A stretch of DNA of 64,000 nucleotides from Gemmatimonadales bacterium (GTDB lineage Bacteria > Gemmatimonadota > Gemmatimonadetes > Gemmatimonadales > GWC2-71-9): contig JBAIWX010000150.1 in the NCBI GenBank assembly GCA_037916975.1, positions 3,643-67,642 of the forward strand, written 5' to 3'. A program made the translations under genes and the position numbers. Position 1 is the first letter of the stretch, and each line of letters begins with the position of its first letter. This document shows, in pieces, positions 2,581 through 56,433 of the stretch. Below the pieces are notes generated by a model that saw only the letters and a program-made list of their open reading frames with translations, was not told where the DNA came from and ran no database searches.

Positions 2581-2637
2581 CTGAGCCACCGGGAGTCCCC
2601 GTCGGTGCTTCGGGCTTCTTTCGGCTGCCGGCCATGC

Positions 2638-2659: not shown

Positions 2660-3019
2660 GGGGGCGACTGGCTTCGACGGGTTGGTAGAAGGGATGGCAG
2701 CGTGCCCAGGTCCAGGTTCCTGGCTAAACCGCTTGGAAACACACAAACGCCAACACTGATCTGGCGCTGGCTGCGTAAGCTGAGCTGAGCTCGCTTCACG
2801 CACCTCCGCCGACGTAGCCCGCCCGGGGCGCCGTCGTCGGATCGCAAAGCTGGGCTGGCCTCGGGCGGCGCTCCGCCGTCAGGGGTGAGACTTCAGGAGC
2901 TAGATCCCGGGAAGGTCGGTGAGCCACCGGCTCGGGGCGACGGCACGAAGGCCCACCTACGCACGTAGACGCTGTCGCGGACGCCAATTCGGACCAGGGT
3001 TCGATTCCCTGCGCCTCCA
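2660..3019 (+). ncRNA. ssrA: tmRNA (SsrA), about 360 nt, tag reading frame ANTDLALAA-stop
   Basis: The 5' end GGGGGCGACTGGCTTCGACGGG is the canonical tmRNA start. The 3' end GGTTCGATTCCCTGCGCCTCCA is a T-arm plus acceptor strand. A 7-bp acceptor stem GGGGGCG/CGCCTCC includes the G3:U pair used by AlaRS, with discriminator A at 3019; CCA is not encoded. An internal frame at 2749-2778 (GCC AAC ACT GAT CTG GCG CTG GCT GCG TAA) gives a typical ...LAA degradation tag. Confidence 0.92.
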
Positions 3020-3026
3020 CTCGCCG

Positions 3027-10580: not shown

Positions 10581-11971
10581 GCGGGGGTCGCCACCAAGGG
10601 GGTCGCGTGCCGGAGCTGGACGAGCTCGTCGGGCACGGGGGTCGGGTACTGGTTCGAGAAGCAGGCGTGACAGAACTGCAGGTGCGCGCCGGCGGCGCGC
10701 AGCATCCCCTCGAGCGAGAGGTAGCCGAGGGTGTCCACGCCGAGGTACTGGCGGATCTCCTCGTGCGAGTGCGTGGAGGCGATGAGCTCCTCGCGCGTCG
10801 GGGTGTCGATGCCGTAGTGGCACGGCCCCGTGATCGGGGGCGAGCCCAGGCGGAGGTGCACCTCGCGGGCACCGGCGGCACGGACCATCTGGACGAGGCC
10901 CTTGCTCGTCGTCCCGCGCACGAGGGAGTCGTCCACCATCACCACCGACTTCCCGGCGATCACCTCGCGCACCGGGTTGAACTTGATCTTGACCTTGGCC
11001 ACGCGGAGCGCCTGCGTCGGGTTGATGAACGTGCGGCCGACGTAGTGGTTCCGGATGAGGCCGTACTCGAGCTTGGAGCCCGAGACCTCGCTGAAGCCGA
11101 GGGCCATGGCGTTCGAGCTGTCGGGCACCGAGAAGACGACCTGCGCCCCCGGGGCGGGGTGCTCGCGCGCCAGCTGGCGGCCGAGCTCGCGGCGGACGCG
11201 GTCCACCGACTGGCCGAAGAGCGTGCTGTCGGGGCGGCCGAAGTACACGAGCTCGAAGACGCACCGGCTCACCGGCTTGGGCGGGAGCGGGGCGAGGTGC
11301 TCGACCCGGCCGTCCACGATGCGGACGAAGTCGCCGGGCTCGAACTCGCAGACGAAGCTCGCGCCCACGAGGTCGAGGGCGCAGCTCTCGGAGGCGACGA
11401 TGGCCCCCTCGCCCACGCGCCCGAGGACGAGCGGGCGGAAGCCGCGCGGGTCCACGACGGCGTAGAGCTCGCGGCCGACCCCGATGACGAGGCTGAACGC
11501 CCCTTCGGCCCGGGTGAGGGCGTCGCGGATCATGCCCTCGACCGTGGGCGCGTGGGAGCGGGCGATGAGGTGCACGAGCACCTCGGTGTCCGACGAGGAG
11601 GTGAAGATCGCGCCGTCGGCGACGAGCTGGGCCTTGAGCTCGGCGAAGTTGGTCAGGTTGCCGTTGTGCGCGATGGCGAGCGGGCCGACGCGCGTGTTCG
11701 CGAAGCAGGGCTGCGCGTTCGCCAGCACGGTGCTGCCGGCGGTGGAGTAGCGCGTGTGGCCGACGGCGATGTCGCCGGGCAGGTGCGACACGGCCGGCTC
11801 GTCGAACGTCTCGGAGACGAGGCCCATGCCGCGGTGGACCCGGGCCTGGCCGTCGCGGTCCACCGCCACGATGCCCGCGCTCTCCTGCCCGCGGTGCTGG
11901 AGCGCGTAGAGCCCGAGGTACGCGAGGCGCGCCGCCTCGGGCAGGTTCGAGATGCCGATGACGCCGCACAT
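10577..11971 (-). CDS. purF: Amidophosphoribosyltransferase
   Basis: MCGVIGI has the N-terminal Cys nucleophile. The PRTase loop is VVMVDDSLVRGTT. C-terminal Cys residues are consistent with an Fe-S cluster. Confidence 0.92.
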
Positions 11972-21667: not shown

Positions 21668-22723
21668 ATGGTGCAAGCACCCCCCGTGACCACCCTCGCC
21701 GACCCGCTCCGGCGCGCCCTGCAGCGCCTGGCCGAGCGCCGTGACCTCGACGCCGAGCTCGCCGCGGAGGCGTTCGGCGTCGTGATGCGGGGCGAGGCGA
21801 CGACCGCCCAGGTCGCCGCACTCCTCATGGGGCTCCGCGTGAAGGGGGAGACCGCGGCGGAGGTGGCCGGTGCCGTGCGCGCGCTCCGCGCCGCGATGGT
21901 GCGCCTCGACGTGGCGGACCGCTCGCGCCTCGTGGACACCTGCGGCACGGGTGGTGGCGCCGTCGGGACCCTCAACATCTCGACCGGCGCCGCGTTCATC
22001 GCCGCCGGCGCGGGCGTGCCGGTCGCGAAGCACGGCAACCGGAGCTTCACGTCGCGCTCGGGCTCCGCCGACGTGATCGAGGCGCTGGGCGTCCGGCTCG
22101 CGCTCCAGCCCGCACGCGCCGCCGAGGTGCTGGCCCGGGCCGGGATCGTGTTCCTCTTCGCGCCCGACTACCACCCCGCGATGCGCCACGCGGGGCCGGC
22201 ACGCCGCGAGCTGGGCCTCGGCACGATCATGAACCTCGTCGGGCCGCTCGCGAACCCGGCCGGCGTCGAACGGCAGGTGGTGGGGGTGGCGGATCCGGGG
22301 CGCGCCGCGCTCATGGCGCACGCGCTGGCGGCGCTCGGCTCCCGGCACGCGCTCGTGGTCCACGCGCAGGTCGGCATGGACGAGATCAGCCCCGTGGGCG
22401 CGACCGACGTGCTCGAGGTGCTCGACGGGGCCGTGCGCGCCTGGACGATCGACCCGCGGGAGCACGGGCTCGCGATGGACTCCGTGGCCGACCTGGCGGG
22501 GGGGGGCCCGGAGGAGAATGCGCGGCGGCTGGAGCGGCTGTTGGCGGGCGAGGAACGGGGGGCCGCGCGGAACGCGCTCCTCCTCAATGCCGCCGCGGCG
22601 CTCTTCGTGGCGGGGGAGGGGTACACCTTCGGCGAGGCGCTCGAGCGGGCGATGCACGCGCTGGCCGGCGGCGCGGCGCTGGCCGCGCTCGAGCGGTTGC
22701 GGGCCGAGAGCGGCGCCGCCTAG
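21668..22723 (+). CDS. trpD: Anthranilate phosphoribosyltransferase
   Basis: CGTGGGAVGTLNISTGAAFIAAGAGVPVAKHGNRSFTSRSGSADV. The start ATG 21668 is taken within the longer track ORF. Confidence 0.9.
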   Translation: MVQAPPVTTLADPLRRALQRLAERRDLDAELAAEAFGVVMRGEATTAQVAALLMGLRVKGETAAEVAGAVRALRAAMVRLDVADRSRLVDTCGTGGGAVGTLNISTGAAFIAAGAGVPVAKHGNRSFTSRSGSADVIEALGVRLALQPARAAEVLARAGIVFLFAPDYHPAMRHAGPARRELGLGTIMNLVGPLANPAGVERQVVGVADPGRAALMAHALAALGSRHALVVHAQVGMDEISPVGATDVLEVLDGAVRAWTIDPREHGLAMDSVADLAGGGPEENARRLERLLAGEERGAARNALLLNAAAALFVAGEGYTFGEALERAMHALAGGAALAALERLRAESGAA

Positions 22724-22733
22724 ACGCGCGCGT

Positions 22734-22763
22734 GGGGGGAGTGGGGAGCGCCCCCCTCCCCCC
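22734..22763. terminator. GC hairpin between convergent trpD and lexA
   Basis: GGGGGGAGTGGGG-AGCG-CCCCCCTCCCCCC forms a 13-bp stem with 1 mismatch and no U-tract. A second 7-bp hairpin lies at 22777-22794. Confidence 0.4.
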
Positions 22764-22793
22764 TCGCGCGGGTCCGGCCGCCCCGGAGGGCGG

Positions 22794-23402
22794 TCAGTAC
22801 TTGCGGATGACGCCGACGACGACGCCCTGGATGAGCACGTCGCGTTCCTGGTAGCGGAGCGGCTGCATGGTGGTGTTCGCGGGCTGGAGGCGGATCCACC
22901 CGCCCGGCTCGCGATAGAACTTCTTGACCGTGGCCTCGGCGCCGTTGACGAGCGCGATCACCATCTCGCCGTTCTCCGCCTCCTGGCGCCCGTGCACCAC
23001 GACGTAGTCGCCGTCGCAGATGTGCTCCTCGATCATGGAGTGCCCGGACACCCGGAGCGCGAAGTTGGGCCCCCGCCGGGGCAGCATGCCATCCGGGACC
23101 GCGATCGTCTCGTCGTGCATGAGCGACTCGATGGGAAGCCCGGCCGCGACGCGCCCGAGCAGGGGCACCTCGGTGGCCTTCGCGGTGCCCCGCGGCGGCA
23201 GCACCTCGATGGACCGGCTTTCGTTGTATGAGCGGCGGATGTAGCCCTTCCGCTCGAGGTTCGTGAGGTGCTCGTGCACGGTGGCGAGCGACTGGAAGCC
23301 GAACCGTTCCGCGATTTCCTCGAAGCTCGGCGCGTACCCCTGCGCCTCGATGTGGTCGCGGAGGTAGTCGAGGATCTCGCTCTGGCGCTTGGTGAGGGGC
23401 AT
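22794..23402 (-). CDS. lexA: LexA repressor
   Basis: 202 aa. It has a wHTH N-terminus (FEEIAERFGFQSLATVHEHLTNLERKGYI), the cleavage site RVAAGLP (Ala-Gly), the Ser nucleophile RVSGHSM and the Lys in ATVKKF. Confidence 0.9.
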   Translation of the reverse strand: MPLTKRQSEILDYLRDHIEAQGYAPSFEEIAERFGFQSLATVHEHLTNLERKGYIRRSYNESRSIEVLPPRGTAKATEVPLLGRVAAGLPIESLMHDETIAVPDGMLPRRGPNFALRVSGHSMIEEHICDGDYVVVHGRQEAENGEMVIALVNGAEATVKKFYREPGGWIRLQPANTTMQPLRYQERDVLIQGVVVGVIRKY

Positions 23403-23427
23403 GGGGCCCTCCCGCAGGGGTACCTGA

Positions 23428-23468
23428 CCGAATAGACTCCGAATTACGATACCCGAAGACGCCCCGAA
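23428..23468 (-). promoter_or_regulatory. Four TTCGG direct repeats (two TTCGG-N6-TTCGG pairs): candidate LexA operator overlapping a candidate lexA promoter
   Basis: Plus-strand CCGAA occurs at 23428, 23439, 23453 and 23464 (spacings 11, 14 and 11 nt) within the 73-bp lexA/trpC spacer. On the lexA strand a TTGTCG-N17-TATCGT promoter candidate spans the first pair. The format recalls the direct-repeat GTTC-N7-GTTC LexA boxes of Alphaproteobacteria. Confidence 0.3.
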
Positions 23469-23475
23469 CGACAAG

Positions 23476-24264
23476 ATGCCCACCACCCTCGACCAGATCC
23501 TCGCCACCACCCGTGCCGGGCTGCCGGCCCTGGCGGAGCGGCGCCGCGCCCTCGAGGCGGCGGCCCTCGCGGCGCCCGCGCCCGGGCCCTTCGCCGCGGC
23601 GCTCCGCCGCCCGACCGTGGCGCTGATCGCGGAGGTGAAGCGCCGCTCGCCGTCCGCGGGGGCGATCAACGAGGGGCTCGACCCGGTCGCCCGGGCGCGC
23701 GGGTACGCCGCGGCGGGGGCGGCCGCGATCTCGGTGCTCACCGACGGACCGTACTTCGGCGGCTCGCTCGCGGACCTCGCCGCCGTCGCGCGCGCCGTGC
23801 CGGTCCCCTGCATCCGCAAGGACTTCATCCTCGCCGAGGAGCAGGTGCTCGAGGCGCGGGCGGCCGGCGCGGCGGCGATCCTCCTCATCGTGCGGGCGCT
23901 CGAGGCCGCGCGGCTCGCCGCGCTGCTCCGCTTCGCCGCCGGCCTCGGGCTGGGGGCGCTCGTGGAGGTGCACGACGCGGCGGAACTCGACGTGGCGCTC
24001 GCCTCGGGCGCCGAGGTCGTCGGGGTCAACAGTCGCGACCTGGCCACCTTCCGGATCGACGTCGCCGCCGCGTGGGCGCTCCTCGGCCGGGTCCCGGCGG
24101 ACCGGGTCGCGGTGGCCGAGAGCGGGATGGCCAGCGCCGCGGACGTCGCGCGCGCCGCGGAGGCGGGGGCCGACGCGGTGCTCGTCGGCACTGCGCTCTC
24201 CGCGGCGCCGGACCCCGATGCCCTCGCCGCGGCGCTGGCCGCGCTCCCGCGCCGTGGCCGTTGA
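23476..24264 (+). CDS. trpC: Indole-3-glycerol phosphate synthase
   Basis: IAEVKRRSPSAG, ISVLTDGPYFGG and IRKDFI. Confidence 0.9.
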   Translation: MPTTLDQILATTRAGLPALAERRRALEAAALAAPAPGPFAAALRRPTVALIAEVKRRSPSAGAINEGLDPVARARGYAAAGAAAISVLTDGPYFGGSLADLAAVARAVPVPCIRKDFILAEEQVLEARAAGAAAILLIVRALEAARLAALLRFAAGLGLGALVEVHDAAELDVALASGAEVVGVNSRDLATFRIDVAAAWALLGRVPADRVAVAESGMASAADVARAAEAGADAVLVGTALSAAPDPDALAAALAALPRRGR

Positions 24265-24898
24265 GGCGAAGATCTGCGGGCTCACCCGGCCGGAGGACGC
24301 CGCCCTCGCCGTCCGCCTGGGGGCCGACTACCTGGGGGCCGTCTTCGCCCCGAGTCCCCGCCAGGTGGACTGGCGCGTCGCCCGCGAGCTGGCCGCGGCG
24401 GGCGAGGGGGTGCCGCTCCTCGGCGTCTTCGTGCGCGAGCCGGCCGACGACATCCTGCGGCTGCGCGACCGCGCCCGGCTCGCCGGGGCGCAGCTGCACG
24501 GCGACTACGACGTGGCCACGCGGGAGCGGCTGGGCCGGGAGGGGCTGCGGGTCTGGAGCGTCGTGCGCCTCGCCGCCGAGGCGGACCTGGACGCGCTCGC
24601 GGGAGCGGTGGCGGCGGCCGAGCTGGTGCTGGTCGAGCCGAGGGTGCCCGGGGCGGAGGGGGGGACGGGGACCACGCTCCCGCTCGAGCTGGCCCAGGCG
24701 GCGCGGGGGCGGCTCGGCGGGGCGCGCATGGCCCTCGCCGGCGGGCTCGGGCCGGCGACGGTCGGCCGGGCGATCGCCCTCGTACGACCCGACGTCGTGG
24801 ATGTAAGTTCAGGCGTGGAAATGGCTCCGGGCCGCAAGGACCCGGCGCTGGTCGAGCAATTCCTGGAGGTGGTGCGTGACGGTCGGCCTCGCCCCTGA
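24254..24898 (+). CDS. trpF: Phosphoribosylanthranilate isomerase
   Basis: [28 protein letters not shown]... The GTG at 24254 was chosen (11-nt overlap with trpC). The ATG at 24218 is an alternative. Confidence 0.85.
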
Positions 24899-26078
24899 AC
24901 GGAGCGTCGGCGGGCGCTTCGGCCCGTACGGCGGTCGCTACGTTCCCGAGACGCTCATGGCGGCGCTCGACGAGCTCGCGGCGCTCTACGACGGCGTGCG
25001 GCAGGACCCGGCGTTCTGGCGCGAGTACGGGGAGCTCCTCGCGGACGTGGTGGGACGGCCGAGCCGCCTCACGCCGGCGCCCCGCCTCTCGGCGGAGGTG
25101 GGGGCGCCGGTCTGGCTCAAGCGCGAGGACCTGAACCACACCGGCGCGCACAAGATCAACAACACCATCGGCCAGGCGCTGCTCGCGCGGCGGATGGGGA
25201 AGCGCCGGATCATCGCCGAGACCGGGGCGGGGCAGCACGGCGTGGCGACCGCGACCGTCTGCGCACGCTTCGGGCTCGAGTGCGTCGTGTACATGGGGGC
25301 GGAGGACGTGGCGCGCCAGGCGCTCAACGTCTACCGGATGCGGCTCCTCGGCGCCACCGTCGTGCCGGTGGAATCGGGGACGCGCACGCTCAAGGACGCC
25401 ACGAACGAGGCACTCCGCGACTGGGTCACCAACGTGCCCTCGACGCACTACATCATCGGCTCGGTGGTGGGTCCGGACCCGTTCCCGCGGATGGTGCGCG
25501 ACTTCCAGGCGGTGATCGGCCGCGAGGCGCGGGCGCAGATTCTCGAGCGCGCCGGCCGGCTGCCGCGGTCGGTCGTCGCGTGCGTGGGCGGCGGGTCGAA
25601 CGCGATCGGGATGTTCGCCGGCTTCCTCGACGACGCGGAGGTGGAGCTGGTCGGGGTGGAGGCGGCGGGCGAGGGCGTCGCGAGCGGGCGGCACAGCGCC
25701 ACGCTCACCGCCGGCGCCCCCGGCGTGCTGCACGGCTGCCTGAGCTACCTGCTGCAGGACGAGGACGGGCAGGTGGCGCCGGCCCACTCGGTGTCGGCGG
25801 GGCTCGACTACCCGGGCGTCGGGCCGGAGCACAGCTGGCTCCGCGACACCGGCCGCGTGCGCTACGCGACGGCGACCGACGCGGAGGCGCTCGCCGCCTT
25901 CCAGGCGGTCTGCCGGCTCGAGGGCATCATCCCGGCGCTCGAGACCGCCCACGCCTTCGCCTGCGTGCTGCGCGAGCGGGGCCGCTGGGCGGCGGACGAG
26001 CCGGTGCTCGTCTGCCTGAGCGGCCGCGGCGACAAGGACGTGGCGCACGTGGCGTCGCTCCTCGGGGCGCAGGGATGA
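24876..26078 (+). CDS. trpB: Tryptophan synthase beta chain
   Basis: [16 protein letters not shown], the PLP-Lys context HTGAHKINN, and GGGSNAIG. The GTG start overlaps the trpF end. Confidence 0.92.
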
Positions 26079-27760
26079 CCGCACCCCAGCACGAGGCGGT
26101 GCTGCCCGCGGCGCAGGTCGCCGAGGTCATCAACAGCCTCGTGAAGGCGCTGCGCGCCTTCCAGATGTACCTCCCCAACAACCCCATCTACCAGCGCGCC
26201 GCGCAGAACGCGCGGGCGGCGTTCGCGCCCATCTGGGCGGTGCTCGACGAGCTCGTGCTCACGGTGCAGGAGACCGACTTCACCTGGGAGGGGGAGACGG
26301 TCTACCACCAGCTCCAGAAGAACGAGAGCCTCGCCTGGATGCTGTTCAAGGACGGGATGCGCGTCCTCACGCTCCGGCGGGGCGTGGAGGAGGGGGAGCT
26401 CCAGCGCTTCCTCGAGACCGTGAACCGCGCCCGGTTCCTCGCGCCCAACGCGGGCGACGACCTCCTCACGCTCCTCTGGGAGCAGGAGTTCGCCCACATC
26501 CAGTACCACTTCGTCGAGGGCTTCGGCGACGAGGCGGTCCCCGAGGCGGACACCACGGCGTACGGCGGGAGCACCGAGGCGACGGCGACGCAGGTGCAGC
26601 AGCAGGTGCGGGAGGAGGCGCCGCCGCGGCCGCCGGGCATCGTGGACCTCGAGGAGTTCGACTCGACGCTCTACTTCCTCGACGACCGCGAGATCCAGTA
26701 CATCCAGGACGAGGTCGCGAAGGAGTACGCCCGCGACGTGCGCGGCGCGGCACTGGCCACGCTCTACGACGTCTTCGAGTTCGAGCCGCGCCGGGAGTAC
26801 CGGGAGGAGATCCTCGGTGTCCTCGAGCTCCTCTTCCCGAACCTCCTCAACGCCGGCGAGTTCCGCACGGTGGCGGCGATGCTGCGCGAGCTGCGCCAGC
26901 TGGCGCAGCGGGCGCCGCAGCTCGCGCCCGAGCACCGGGAGCGCCTCGCGGGGTTCGAGGCGAAGCTCGGCGAGCCGGAGATCGTGCGCCAGCTCATCCA
27001 GTCGCTCGACGAGGCGGCGGCGCTCCCGGGGGACGAGGACGTCACCGAGGTGCTCCGCGAGCTGCGCCCGGCGGCGCTCGGCGCGATCGTGGGGGCGATC
27101 CCGACCGTCGCGACGCCGCACGTGCGCACCCTGCTCGAGCAGGCGGCGGACCGGCTCGCCGCGGGCCACCCGGGCGAGGTGCTCCGGCTCCTCAAGGAGC
27201 CCGAGCACCCGGCGCTCGGCGAGATCGTCGGGATGTGCGGCCGCCTCAAGCTGCAGGGCGCGGTCCCGGGCCTGGGCGAGACGATCGCGCACGCGGACGC
27301 GGCGGTCCGGCTCGCCTCGGTCCAGGCGCTCGCGGAGATCGCGACGGCGGGCGCCCTCACCGCGATGGAGCGCGCCGTGGACGACGCCGACCGCGCCGTC
27401 CGCCTCGCCGCGGTGCGCTTCCTCGGCTCGCGCGGCTACAAGAACGCGCTCCGGCGGATCGAGCCGGTCGTCGCCGGGAAGGCCGGCCGCGACGTGGACC
27501 TGACCGAGAAGATGGCCTTCTTCGAGGCCTACGGGGCGATCGCCGGCGGCACGGCCGTCGCCACGCTGCAGAGCATGCTCCTCTCGCGCGGGCTCCTCGG
27601 CTACCGGGCGAGCCCCGAGACGCGCGCCTGCGCCGCGATGGCGCTGGGCCGGATCCGCACCCCGGAGGCGCGGGCGGTGCTCGAGCGGGCCGCCGACGAC
27701 AAGGAGCTCGTGGTCCGCAACGCCGTGAGCCGGGCCCTGCGGGGCGGGGGGAGCGAGTGA
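26075..27760 (+). CDS. Hypothetical protein: unknown N-terminal domain plus C-terminal HEAT/PBS-lyase-type repeats
   Basis: 561 aa. The ATG overlaps the trpB stop (ATGA at 26075-26078). C-terminal repeats are [38 protein letters not shown] and [14 protein letters not shown]. The N-terminal ~100 aa ([21 protein letters not shown]...) are paralogous to the N-terminus of the next gene. Confidence 0.7.
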
Positions 27761-55163: not shown

Positions 55164-55248
55164 CCGCCGCCTTGCTCCCGTCGGGGAGTGGCGGCAGCTT
55201 TCCGCTCCCGTGCCGGCCCGGCGCGGGACGCGACGCAAGGAGGACGAC

Positions 55249-56433
55249 ATGGCGACGATGACGCTGGCGCGCGGGCGCGCGAAGGGGACGGGAACGGTGG
55301 ATGCGGCGCTCCGGCGCCTCACGGCGTTCGAGGCCGGCACCCACCGGGTCGTCAGCTGCTACCTCAAGCTCGAGCCGCGCGACCGCGTGCGTGGCAAGTA
55401 CCTGATCAAGCTCAAGAACCGCGTGCGCGACCTGGAGGCGGTCCTCCCGCGACTCGGGCTCGAGCGCACGGTGCAGGAGGAGGTGTCGAGGGACCTGGCG
55501 CGCATCCTCGCCTACCTCGGGTCGCCCGGGAACCTCCCATCGGCCAACGGCATCGCGCTCTTCGCCTGCGGGCCGAGGAAGCTCTTCGAGGCGGTGCCGC
55601 TGCCCTCGGTGCACCGCTCGCGCCTCGCCGTGGACCGGACGCCGCTCGTCCGCGAGCTGGTGGCCGTGCAGGAGGAGTTCGGCCGGCTCTACACCGTCGT
55701 GATGGACCGGACGTCCGCGCGGATCTTCGCGGTCACGGCGGACGCCGCGCGCGAAGTGTCCTCGCTCGTCTCGGCCAGCACCCGCGGCGGCCGCTACCGG
55801 GGCGACCAGGACGGCCCAGGCTGGGGCGAGCACAGCTACAACAACCGCATCCGGGAGGAGCGCCAGCGCCACGCCGATTCGGTGGCCCGGGAGCTCTACA
55901 CGCTGGACCGCCGGGAGGCGGCGCACGGCATCGTCCTTGCCGGCCCCGGGGCCGACGCCGGCGTGCTCGCGCCGTTCCTGCACCCCGACCTGCGGGGCCG
56001 GCTGTTCGGGACGGTGAAGCTCAACCCGAAGGAGCTGAGCCCGGCCGCGGTGCACGCGGCGACGCTCGAGGTGCGCGCCGCCGCCAAGCGCGAGGAGGAG
56101 CGCGCGCTCGTCGCCGAGGTGCGATCCAAGGTCGGCGAGCGCTGGGCGGTGAACGGCATCGCGGAGACGCTCAGGGCGCTCGCCCGCGGCCAGGTCCGTA
56201 CGCTGCTGGTGGACGCCGACGCGGCGGAGCCCGGCTACCGCTGCAGCGCGACCGGGCGGCTGGTCCTCGACCCCGCCGACGCGCGGGGCGAGGGCGAGGC
56301 GCTGCCGGTCGTGGACGTGGTGGACGAGGCGATCGAGGACGCGCTCCGCCAGCACGTGCCGATCAACGTCGTCTTCGAGCCGGAGGCGGCGAAGAAGCTC
56401 CGCGGGCTCGCCGGGTTGCTGCGCTTCCGGTGA
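55249..56433 (+). CDS. eRF1/Pelota-fold protein (bacterial aeRF1-like, baeRF / Vms1-type family), no GGQ
   Basis: A strong AAGGAGG lies 5 nt before ATG 55249. There are three eRF1/Pelota-like blocks. The central block is YTVVMDRTSARIF followed by the loop STRGGRYRGDQDGPGWGEHSYNNRIREE at the GGQ position. The second is IVLAGPGADAGVL (GPG motif as in Pelota/eRF1). The C-domain block is NGIAETLRALARGQVRTLLVDAD, ending GLAGLLRFR. This resembles Rv2629-type proteins as I recall them. Confidence 0.55.
   Translation: MATMTLARGRAKGTGTVDAALRRLTAFEAGTHRVVSCYLKLEPRDRVRGKYLIKLKNRVRDLEAVLPRLGLERTVQEEVSRDLARILAYLGSPGNLPSANGIALFACGPRKLFEAVPLPSVHRSRLAVDRTPLVRELVAVQEEFGRLYTVVMDRTSARIFAVTADAAREVSSLVSASTRGGRYRGDQDGPGWGEHSYNNRIREERQRHADSVARELYTLDRREAAHGIVLAGPGADAGVLAPFLHPDLRGRLFGTVKLNPKELSPAAVHAATLEVRAAAKREEERALVAEVRSKVGERWAVNGIAETLRALARGQVRTLLVDADAAEPGYRCSATGRLVLDPADARGEGEALPVVDVVDEAIEDALRQHVPINVVFEPEAAKKLRGLAGLLRFR

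Follow-up and report, generated by a model that had tools for sequence, protein, structure and literature searches.

LexA-binding motifs are phylum-specific, and the Gemmatimonadota, which are abundant in soil, are a phylum known chiefly through metagenomes. Full-text searches, whose coverage left most subscription journals outside, gave no description of the TTCGG motif treated here or of any LexA motif for Gemmatimonadetes, Gemmatimonadota or Gemmatimonas. In other bacteria, both the autoregulation of lexA and the control of the imuABC cassette by LexA have been described (PMC9578287). LexA boxes in the form of direct repeats are on record from Caulobacter and other Alphaproteobacteria as GTTC-N7-GTTC (PMC9578287), and the recognition of direct repeats is said to have arisen in LexA on several independent occasions (PMC7739468). 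The alphaproteobacterial box (Caulobacter, Rhodobacter/Cereibacter, Rhizobium) has a TTC core and an 11-bp phasing, is found at lexA and at imuA-imuB-dnaE2, and stands in several phased copies in the lexA promoter (PMC9578287 Table 1). The box of the Gram-positive LexA (DinR), CGAAC-N4-GTTCG, is on the other hand an inverted repeat (PMC9578287 Table 1). A further direct repeat, TTACACATATTTTWTACATA, is recognized by the LexA of Balneolaeota; it is likewise phylum-specific, was found by motif discovery on lexA promoters and comparative genomics, has been validated by EMSA and governs a regulon centred on lexA and translesion polymerases (PMC7739468).

The locus compared here with these systems lies in a window, that is, the whole 64-kb stretch of DNA that was analysed, which comes from a member of the Gemmatimonadales and has a G + C content of 74%. 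Four copies of the pentamer TTCGG fill the spacer between the divergent genes lexA and trpC, and they very probably represent two LexA operators (SOS boxes) of a previously undescribed type, namely a direct repeat TTCGG-N6-TTCGG with half-sites 11 bp apart. The features of the locus are as follows.

22794..23402, minus strand: lexA, 202 aa, a canonical LexA repressor and the presumed binder of the units
23402-23400, minus strand: ATG of lexA
23403-23475: lexA-trpC spacer, 73 bp, between lexA (minus) and trpC (plus)
23407..23413, minus strand: Shine-Dalgarno-like GGGAGGG ahead of the lexA ATG
23428..23443, minus strand: operator unit 2, TTCGG-AGTCTA-TTCGG, beginning 2 nt past the -10 hexamer
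23446..23451, minus strand: candidate -10 hexamer TATCGT, TAnnnT in all relatives
23453..23468, minus strand: operator unit 1, TTCGG-GGCGTC-TTCGG, which fills the interval between -35 and -10 of the candidate lexA promoter
23469..23474, minus strand: candidate -35 hexamer TTGTCG, inferred from its conserved position, TTG[TC]CC in relatives
23428, 23439, 23453 and 23464, plus strand: the pentamers read as CCGAA
23476, plus strand: ATG of trpC
23476..24264, plus strand: trpC (NF001377, 261 bits), a divergent neighbour that does not belong to the operator

On the lexA strand (the reverse complement of 23403-23475) the spacer and the start codon read CTTGTCG-TTCGG-GGCGTC-TTCGG-GTATCGTAA-TTCGG-AGTCTA-TTCGG-TCAGGTACCCCTGCGGGAGGGCCCC-ATG. 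The earlier note's account of four TTCGG direct repeats, which begin at intervals of 11, 14 and 11 nt, is borne out by this sequence, and so is their division into two TTCGG-N6-TTCGG units, which run from 23468 to 23453 and from 23443 to 23428. TTGTCG and TATCGT, separated by 17 nt around unit 1, and the position of unit 2 just downstream were also described rightly. In addition, the palindromes CTGT-N8-ACAG and GAAC-N4-GTTC, which had been said to be absent from the spacer, do not occur between 23380 and 23500 even with up to one mismatch, and at the same tolerance this stretch holds no LexA box of the E. coli, Gram-positive, cyanobacterial, Verrucomicrobia, Bdellovibrio or Xanthomonas type. 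The alphaproteobacterial GTTC-N7-GTTC fits only unit 1 in this stretch, and with one mismatch.

The pentamer as such is found 123 times in the 64-kb window when TTCGG and CCGAA are counted on both strands. The exact unit TTCGG-N6-TTCGG, however, is seen three times against about 0.1 expected, and in 300 first-order Markov simulations of the window at least four same-strand pentamers never fell within 73 bp (0/300). A chance origin of the pentamer cluster is thus excluded.

The presumed binder is a canonical LexA protein: it scores 218.8 bits with TIGR00498 against a cut-off of 110.95, comprises the winged-helix DNA-binding domain PF01726 and the S24 peptidase domain PF00717, and aligns end to end with LexA structures in the PDB (3k2z, 4e-37; E. 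coli 1jhh/3jso). The Ala-Gly cleavage site, A87-G88, and the Ser/Lys dyad, S122 and K160, are invariant. The recognition helices compare as follows.

Window LexA: SLATVHEHL
Bacillus LexA: SSSTVHGHL
Cereibacter (alphaproteobacterial) LexA: SKSGIHRLI
E. coli LexA: SPNAAEEHL

Judged by these residues, the recognition helix is of the Gram-positive type and not of the alphaproteobacterial one; TVHEHL of the window resembles TVHGHL of the Bacillus LexA, which at 43-44% identity is among the best matches. The half-site GTTCG of the Gram-positive box shares TTCG with TTCGG, although the Gram-positive half-sites are inverted whereas those of the Gemmatimonadales stand head-to-tail with a 6-nt gap. It would seem that each monomer reads a half-site close to the Gram-positive one, but that the half-sites are arranged head-to-tail, 11 bp apart. 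With the alphaproteobacterial box, the TTCGG unit has in common the direct repeat, the 11-bp phasing and the TTC core, and TTCGG-N6-TTCGG can indeed be written as nTTC-N7-nTTC, with the same 11-bp period; as a control, the lexA promoter of Cereibacter azotoformans shows the known GAAC-N7-GAAC-N7-GAAC. The word, however, is TTCGG, in which the G of GTTC is not conserved and the two 3' G are invariant, and the LexA of the window is only about 40-44% identical to alphaproteobacterial LexA, has another recognition helix and belongs to another phylum. On these comparisons the Gemmatimonadales unit is not a box of the alphaproteobacterial type, since it has neither the GTTC half-site nor a LexA of that lineage. 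The Balneolaeota motif, which has been validated by EMSA, is unrelated in sequence to the TTCGG unit, a predicted operator.

Conservation among relatives was followed in 80 species-level genomes labelled Gemmatimonadales or Gemmatimonadaceae, in which LexA is 84-88% identical to that of the window. The best 120 matches listed in a protein homologue search with the window LexA likewise have identities of 84% or more, so that the lexA sample covers close relatives. Informative are 79 lexA loci, namely 78 related species and the window (the sequence of one locus, L065, ends 15 nt before the gene), and all four pentamers are unchanged and both units kept in every one of them (79/79). The same architecture is present within 100 nt of the lexA start in 77 of the 80 related loci; in L003 the units are farther upstream of lexA, at -157 and -124. 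The consensus is CTTG[TC]CC-TTCGG-N6-TTCGG-GTAnnnT-n[AG]-TTCGG-GCTCT[AG]-TTCGG-TC, and it summarizes 64 distinct 41-nt cores, in which little or no variation affects the pentamers, the -35 TTG and the -10 TA...T; the N6 of unit 1 is variable. Past unit 2 all conservation is lost and the 5'UTRs are unalignable, except that stretches like GGAG or GAGG are found at an equal distance within the otherwise unconserved leaders. This pattern excludes neutral drift as the source of the pentamer conservation.

The spacing within a unit is always 6, while the gap between the units is 9 nt in 75 loci, 10 in two, 8 in one and 14 or 17 in the others. Because the gap varies and the internal spacing is fixed, the module is one TTCGG-N6-TTCGG unit that is present twice, and not a fixed array of four repeats. 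TTC is preceded by C in unit 1 (78/79) and by A or G in unit 2 (47 and 30 of 79, respectively).

The hexamers around unit 1 are candidate promoter elements, assigned here by their sequence: the -35 position is kept in all loci as CTTGyCC, 17 nt from the -10, and wherever the units are separated by the usual 9 nt (75 loci) the -10 always or almost always has its T, A and final T. A simple sigma-70 scan gave no promoter in the window spacer, where TTGTCG/TATCGT matches 8 of 12 positions and 9 are required, and neither a promoter nor a terminator was called when 22600-23700 was scanned in a simple way. Unit 2 would cover the expected transcription start, as judged from the -10, and the early 5'UTR of lexA. 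The pentamers might be taken for a part of the core promoter itself (for example, the site of an alternative sigma factor), for an element acting at the RNA level (5'UTR hairpins of the UUCG type) or for a chance or low-complexity cluster, because TTCGG contains UUCG and unit 2 is probably transcribed. This is very unlikely. Chance is excluded by the counts and simulations and neutral drift by the conservation; unit 1 of lexA, like all imuA units described below, lies upstream of the -10 and so is untranscribed; and a 6-nt gap between pentamers does not suit a -35/-10 pair. Moreover, separate TTGnnn and TAnnnT hexamers flank the unit with a normal spacing of 16-18 nt, and the position of the unit relative to the -10 differs among unit 1, unit 2 and the tmRNA site (see below).

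The other gene bordering the spacer belongs to a trp run, lexA being placed in antisense between trpD (ends at 22723) and trpC-trpF-trpB (region 21690-26078). The ATG of trpC is 1 nt from the lexA -35 hexamer, and the first pentamer is 7 nt from the same ATG, not 8 nt as had been stated. On account of this proximity and of the position of lexA between trpD and trpC, the repeats could be thought of as a trp regulatory element, that is, a site for a Trp-responsive repressor or a trpC leader, whose overlap with the lexA promoter is incidental. In nearly all relatives (L001-L080) the lexA -35 is touched by the start codon of the divergent neighbour, which is trpC in most of them; in L002 and L041, however, it is a homologue of the HEAT-repeat gene of the window (26075-27760), in L063 it is yet another gene with no trpC upstream, and both units are kept in all three. 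Furthermore, no unit was found upstream of trpD, also when one mismatch was allowed, and the units recur in the promoters of imuA genes that have no trp genes in their vicinity. It is lexA rather than trpC that the element accompanies, and a trp function of this kind is the least probable of the explanations weighed here. Nevertheless, trpC may be affected by the operator: since its start abuts the lexA -35, any trpC promoter inside the 73-bp spacer would overlap the operators. No trpC promoter was identified within the spacer.

The earlier note had made its proposal depend on the motif not occurring at background frequency in the genome; away from lexA it turned out to be very rare. The exact unit has a background of about 1-2 copies per Mb on each strand. 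With the lexA promoters set aside, one further exact unit was found in 461 kb of DNA flanking lexA, both strands counted, and in 1.16 Mb of plasmid DNA of Gemmatirosa kalamazoonensis (plasmid 1 and 50 kb of plasmid 2, unannotated PLSDB records) there are four, three of them unique, where about two are expected from the pentamer frequency. The unique exact units on the Gemmatirosa plasmid are all intergenic.

One of these units leads to a second target. At 503918 the Gemmatirosa sequence reads TTGAT-TTCGG-TTTTCG-TTCGG-GTG-TACTCT, about 115 nt upstream of a three-gene operon that encodes a RecA-like ImuA homologue (NF033429, 5e-11), a Y-family-like ImuB and DnaE2 (NF004225 "error-prone DNA polymerase", 991.6 bits, cut-off 939). 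An operon of the imuA-imuB-dnaE2 type is an SOS mutagenesis cassette (PMC9578287). Eight further ImuA homologues were chosen by identity (49-64%) and by the size of the contig, never by the motif, and seven of their loci have the exact unit and one has TTCGG-N6-TTCGC; in total, eight of nine Gemmatimonadota imuA promoters carry the exact unit and the ninth differs by a single mismatch. The unit had been predicted for the promoters of other SOS genes, and at imuA this prediction held. In the eight further loci the units are 55-126 nt upstream of imuA, between TTG(C/T)(T/C) and TAnnnT with 16-18 nt spacing, which is the placement of lexA unit 1. The N6, the -10 and the 5'UTR differ from one imuA locus to another, and the base before TTC is T, C or G. 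The contigs have a G + C content of 64-81% and include the isolate "Gemmatimonadetes bacterium T265", and imuB and dnaE2 follow imuA in most of the nine loci. In addition, a metagenome search with the Gemmatirosa ImuA gave one near-identical locus, in which the unit is present. If the background is taken as about 1.7e-6 for each position on each strand, the chance of a unit in a 200-nt upstream stretch should be about 3e-4 per locus, so that eight of nine imuA promoters are far beyond chance.

Some other features of the imuA loci are recorded here. One locus has, besides the unit at -55, a second promoter-like one (L114:2680-2695, TTGCATC-TTCGG-CGAATG-TTCGG-TATGGT) 321 nt upstream of imuA. Exact units inside the 5' end of dnaE2 (L109:4975-4990 and L110:4869-4884) encode FSFGTSSA and were set aside as probably a coding coincidence; that they act as roadblocks is conceivable. 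In L112:2430-3912 (= L113) the promoter of an imuA homologue contains a perfect unit, but the genes next in line are a 78-aa ORF and a PIN-domain gene, which look like a toxin-antitoxin pair, in place of imuB and dnaE2.

The units at lexA and imuA thus being described, there is within the window only one exact unit outside the lexA spacer, and it stands before the tmRNA gene.

2609..2624, plus strand: third exact unit of the window, TTCGG-GCTTCT-TTCGG, preceding the mature tmRNA 5' end by 36 nt
2660-3020, plus strand: tmRNA gene, tag ANTDLALAA

This unit lies over the -35 region of a TATATT promoter. The figure of about 0.1 exact units expected applies to the whole window, of which intergenic DNA is a small share. 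The site hints that ssrA (tmRNA) could be an extra member of the regulon. A search of viral contigs with the composite pattern of the tmRNA site gave 0 matches, and one with the unit plus the RecA FGKG motif gave two chance matches, neither of them recA. The window contains no other SOS gene; its genes include pur, PPDK, trp, chemotaxis, transport, PEP carboxylase, aspS, phoH, mgtE and others. Among them is a gene of baeRF family 10 (55210-56433, plus strand, 5.5e-13; bacterial archaeo-eukaryotic release-factor domains), situated between the genes of a sulfate-permease-family transporter and a HAD hydrolase. Tblastn with E. coli RecA, UvrA, DinB and RuvB gave no match in the analysed contigs and the 1.1 Mb of Gemmatirosa plasmid 1, and a contig search with the window LexA itself returned only two short contigs.

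The remaining units of Gemmatirosa plasmid 1 (NZ_CP007129.1) are at phage-like loci. At 764576 (minus strand) the unit is upstream of a Sak4-like phage recombination ATPase (phrog_124, 6e-9), and at 11106 and 64166 (plus strand) an identical pair of units belongs to a duplicated element, each with a small HTH gene of phage type on one side and a membrane/zinc-ribbon ORF on the other. Prophages and mobile elements often carry LexA boxes (PMC9578287). The Gemmatirosa loci may be SOS-controlled mobile elements and are weakly compatible with binding by LexA. The regulon as predicted from sequence would comprise two operons and these phage-like loci.

LexA-independent systems of the damage response, such as PafBC, DdrO and DriD, offer an analogy for another possibility, namely that a different DNA-damage or stress regulator binds the direct repeat and controls lexA and imuA-imuB-dnaE2. 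Direct repeats suit many regulators other than LexA, and tmRNA is atypical, not being a classical SOS gene, so that its unit counts against LexA. Such a regulator is nevertheless unlikely, if less so than the promoter, RNA or trp explanations. The site is in the promoter of lexA itself in 79 of 79 loci, which is the classical signature of autoregulation, and a position that covers the -35/-10 spacer and the transcription start suits a repressor. The second target, moreover, is the archetypal LexA-controlled cassette (PMC9578287), and the half-site has TTCG in common with the Gram-positive GTTCG, just as the window LexA has a helix of the Gram-positive type (PMC9578287 Table 1). A lineage-specific, non-palindromic LexA box, as the earlier note had suggested, is accordingly the reading favoured by the 79 lexA loci, the rarity of the unit elsewhere and the eight exact imuA promoters. 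It is LexA that we infer to be the binder, and repression would be the outcome of its binding.

If the units are LexA operators, regulation could proceed as follows. A LexA dimer would bind each TTCGG-N6-TTCGG unit. At lexA, the dimer on unit 1 would fill the -35/-10 spacer and a second dimer, on unit 2, would cover the transcription start; the bound LexA would exclude RNA polymerase, with tight autorepression of lexA as the result. At imuA, one dimer in the -35/-10 spacer would suffice, and a single unit would control imuA-imuB-dnaE2 in the Gemmatimonadota. Upon DNA damage, activated RecA would cause LexA to cleave itself at the Ala-Gly bond, and the promoters would be freed. Since LexA dimers are two-fold symmetric, a direct repeat would need an asymmetric arrangement, for which there is precedent.

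A similar lay-out was met in the next-closest LexA clade, the Vicinamibacterales (Acidobacteriota; one member is so named), with about 60% identity. In three lineages of this clade the lexA promoter reads TTGAT[TC]-TTCGC-[CT]TTTTG-TTTG[CT]-[AG]TAnAGT (L118:1960-2000, L119:1735-1775 and L129-L131:1440-1480), so that, as in the Gemmatimonadales, two TTYGY pentamers 11 bp apart fill the lexA -35/-10 spacer. The pentamers, however, are TTCGC and TTTGY, and the whole block is conserved, which means that operator positions are not separable from the rest; the recognition helix, SLATVHKHL, differs from that of the window by E to K. No description of this lay-out was found in the literature searched. 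It is a speculative but possible extension that a LexA with a Gram-positive-type helix switched from inverted to head-to-tail half-sites independently of the Alphaproteobacteria, that the TTYGY-N6-TTYGY architecture is common to the Gemmatimonadales and the Vicinamibacteria clade, and that the regulon also reaches tmRNA (2609-2624) and, by way of an overlapping divergent promoter, the gene abutting lexA (here trpC-trpF-trpB). If this is true, Vicinamibacteria and Gemmatimonadales define a large undescribed family of direct-repeat SOS boxes in soil bacteria.

The TTCGG box would add a case of direct-repeat recognition by a symmetric repressor, here on a DNA-binding domain of the Gram-positive type, and with two operators at lexA and one at imuA it would provide a simple, testable system for the change in orientation of LexA half-sites. 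LexA motifs let the SOS regulon, with its repair, mutagenesis and induction of prophages and mobile elements, be read from genome sequence, and the TTCGG-N6-TTCGG box, if well supported, would make the SOS network of the Gemmatimonadota predictable in silico.
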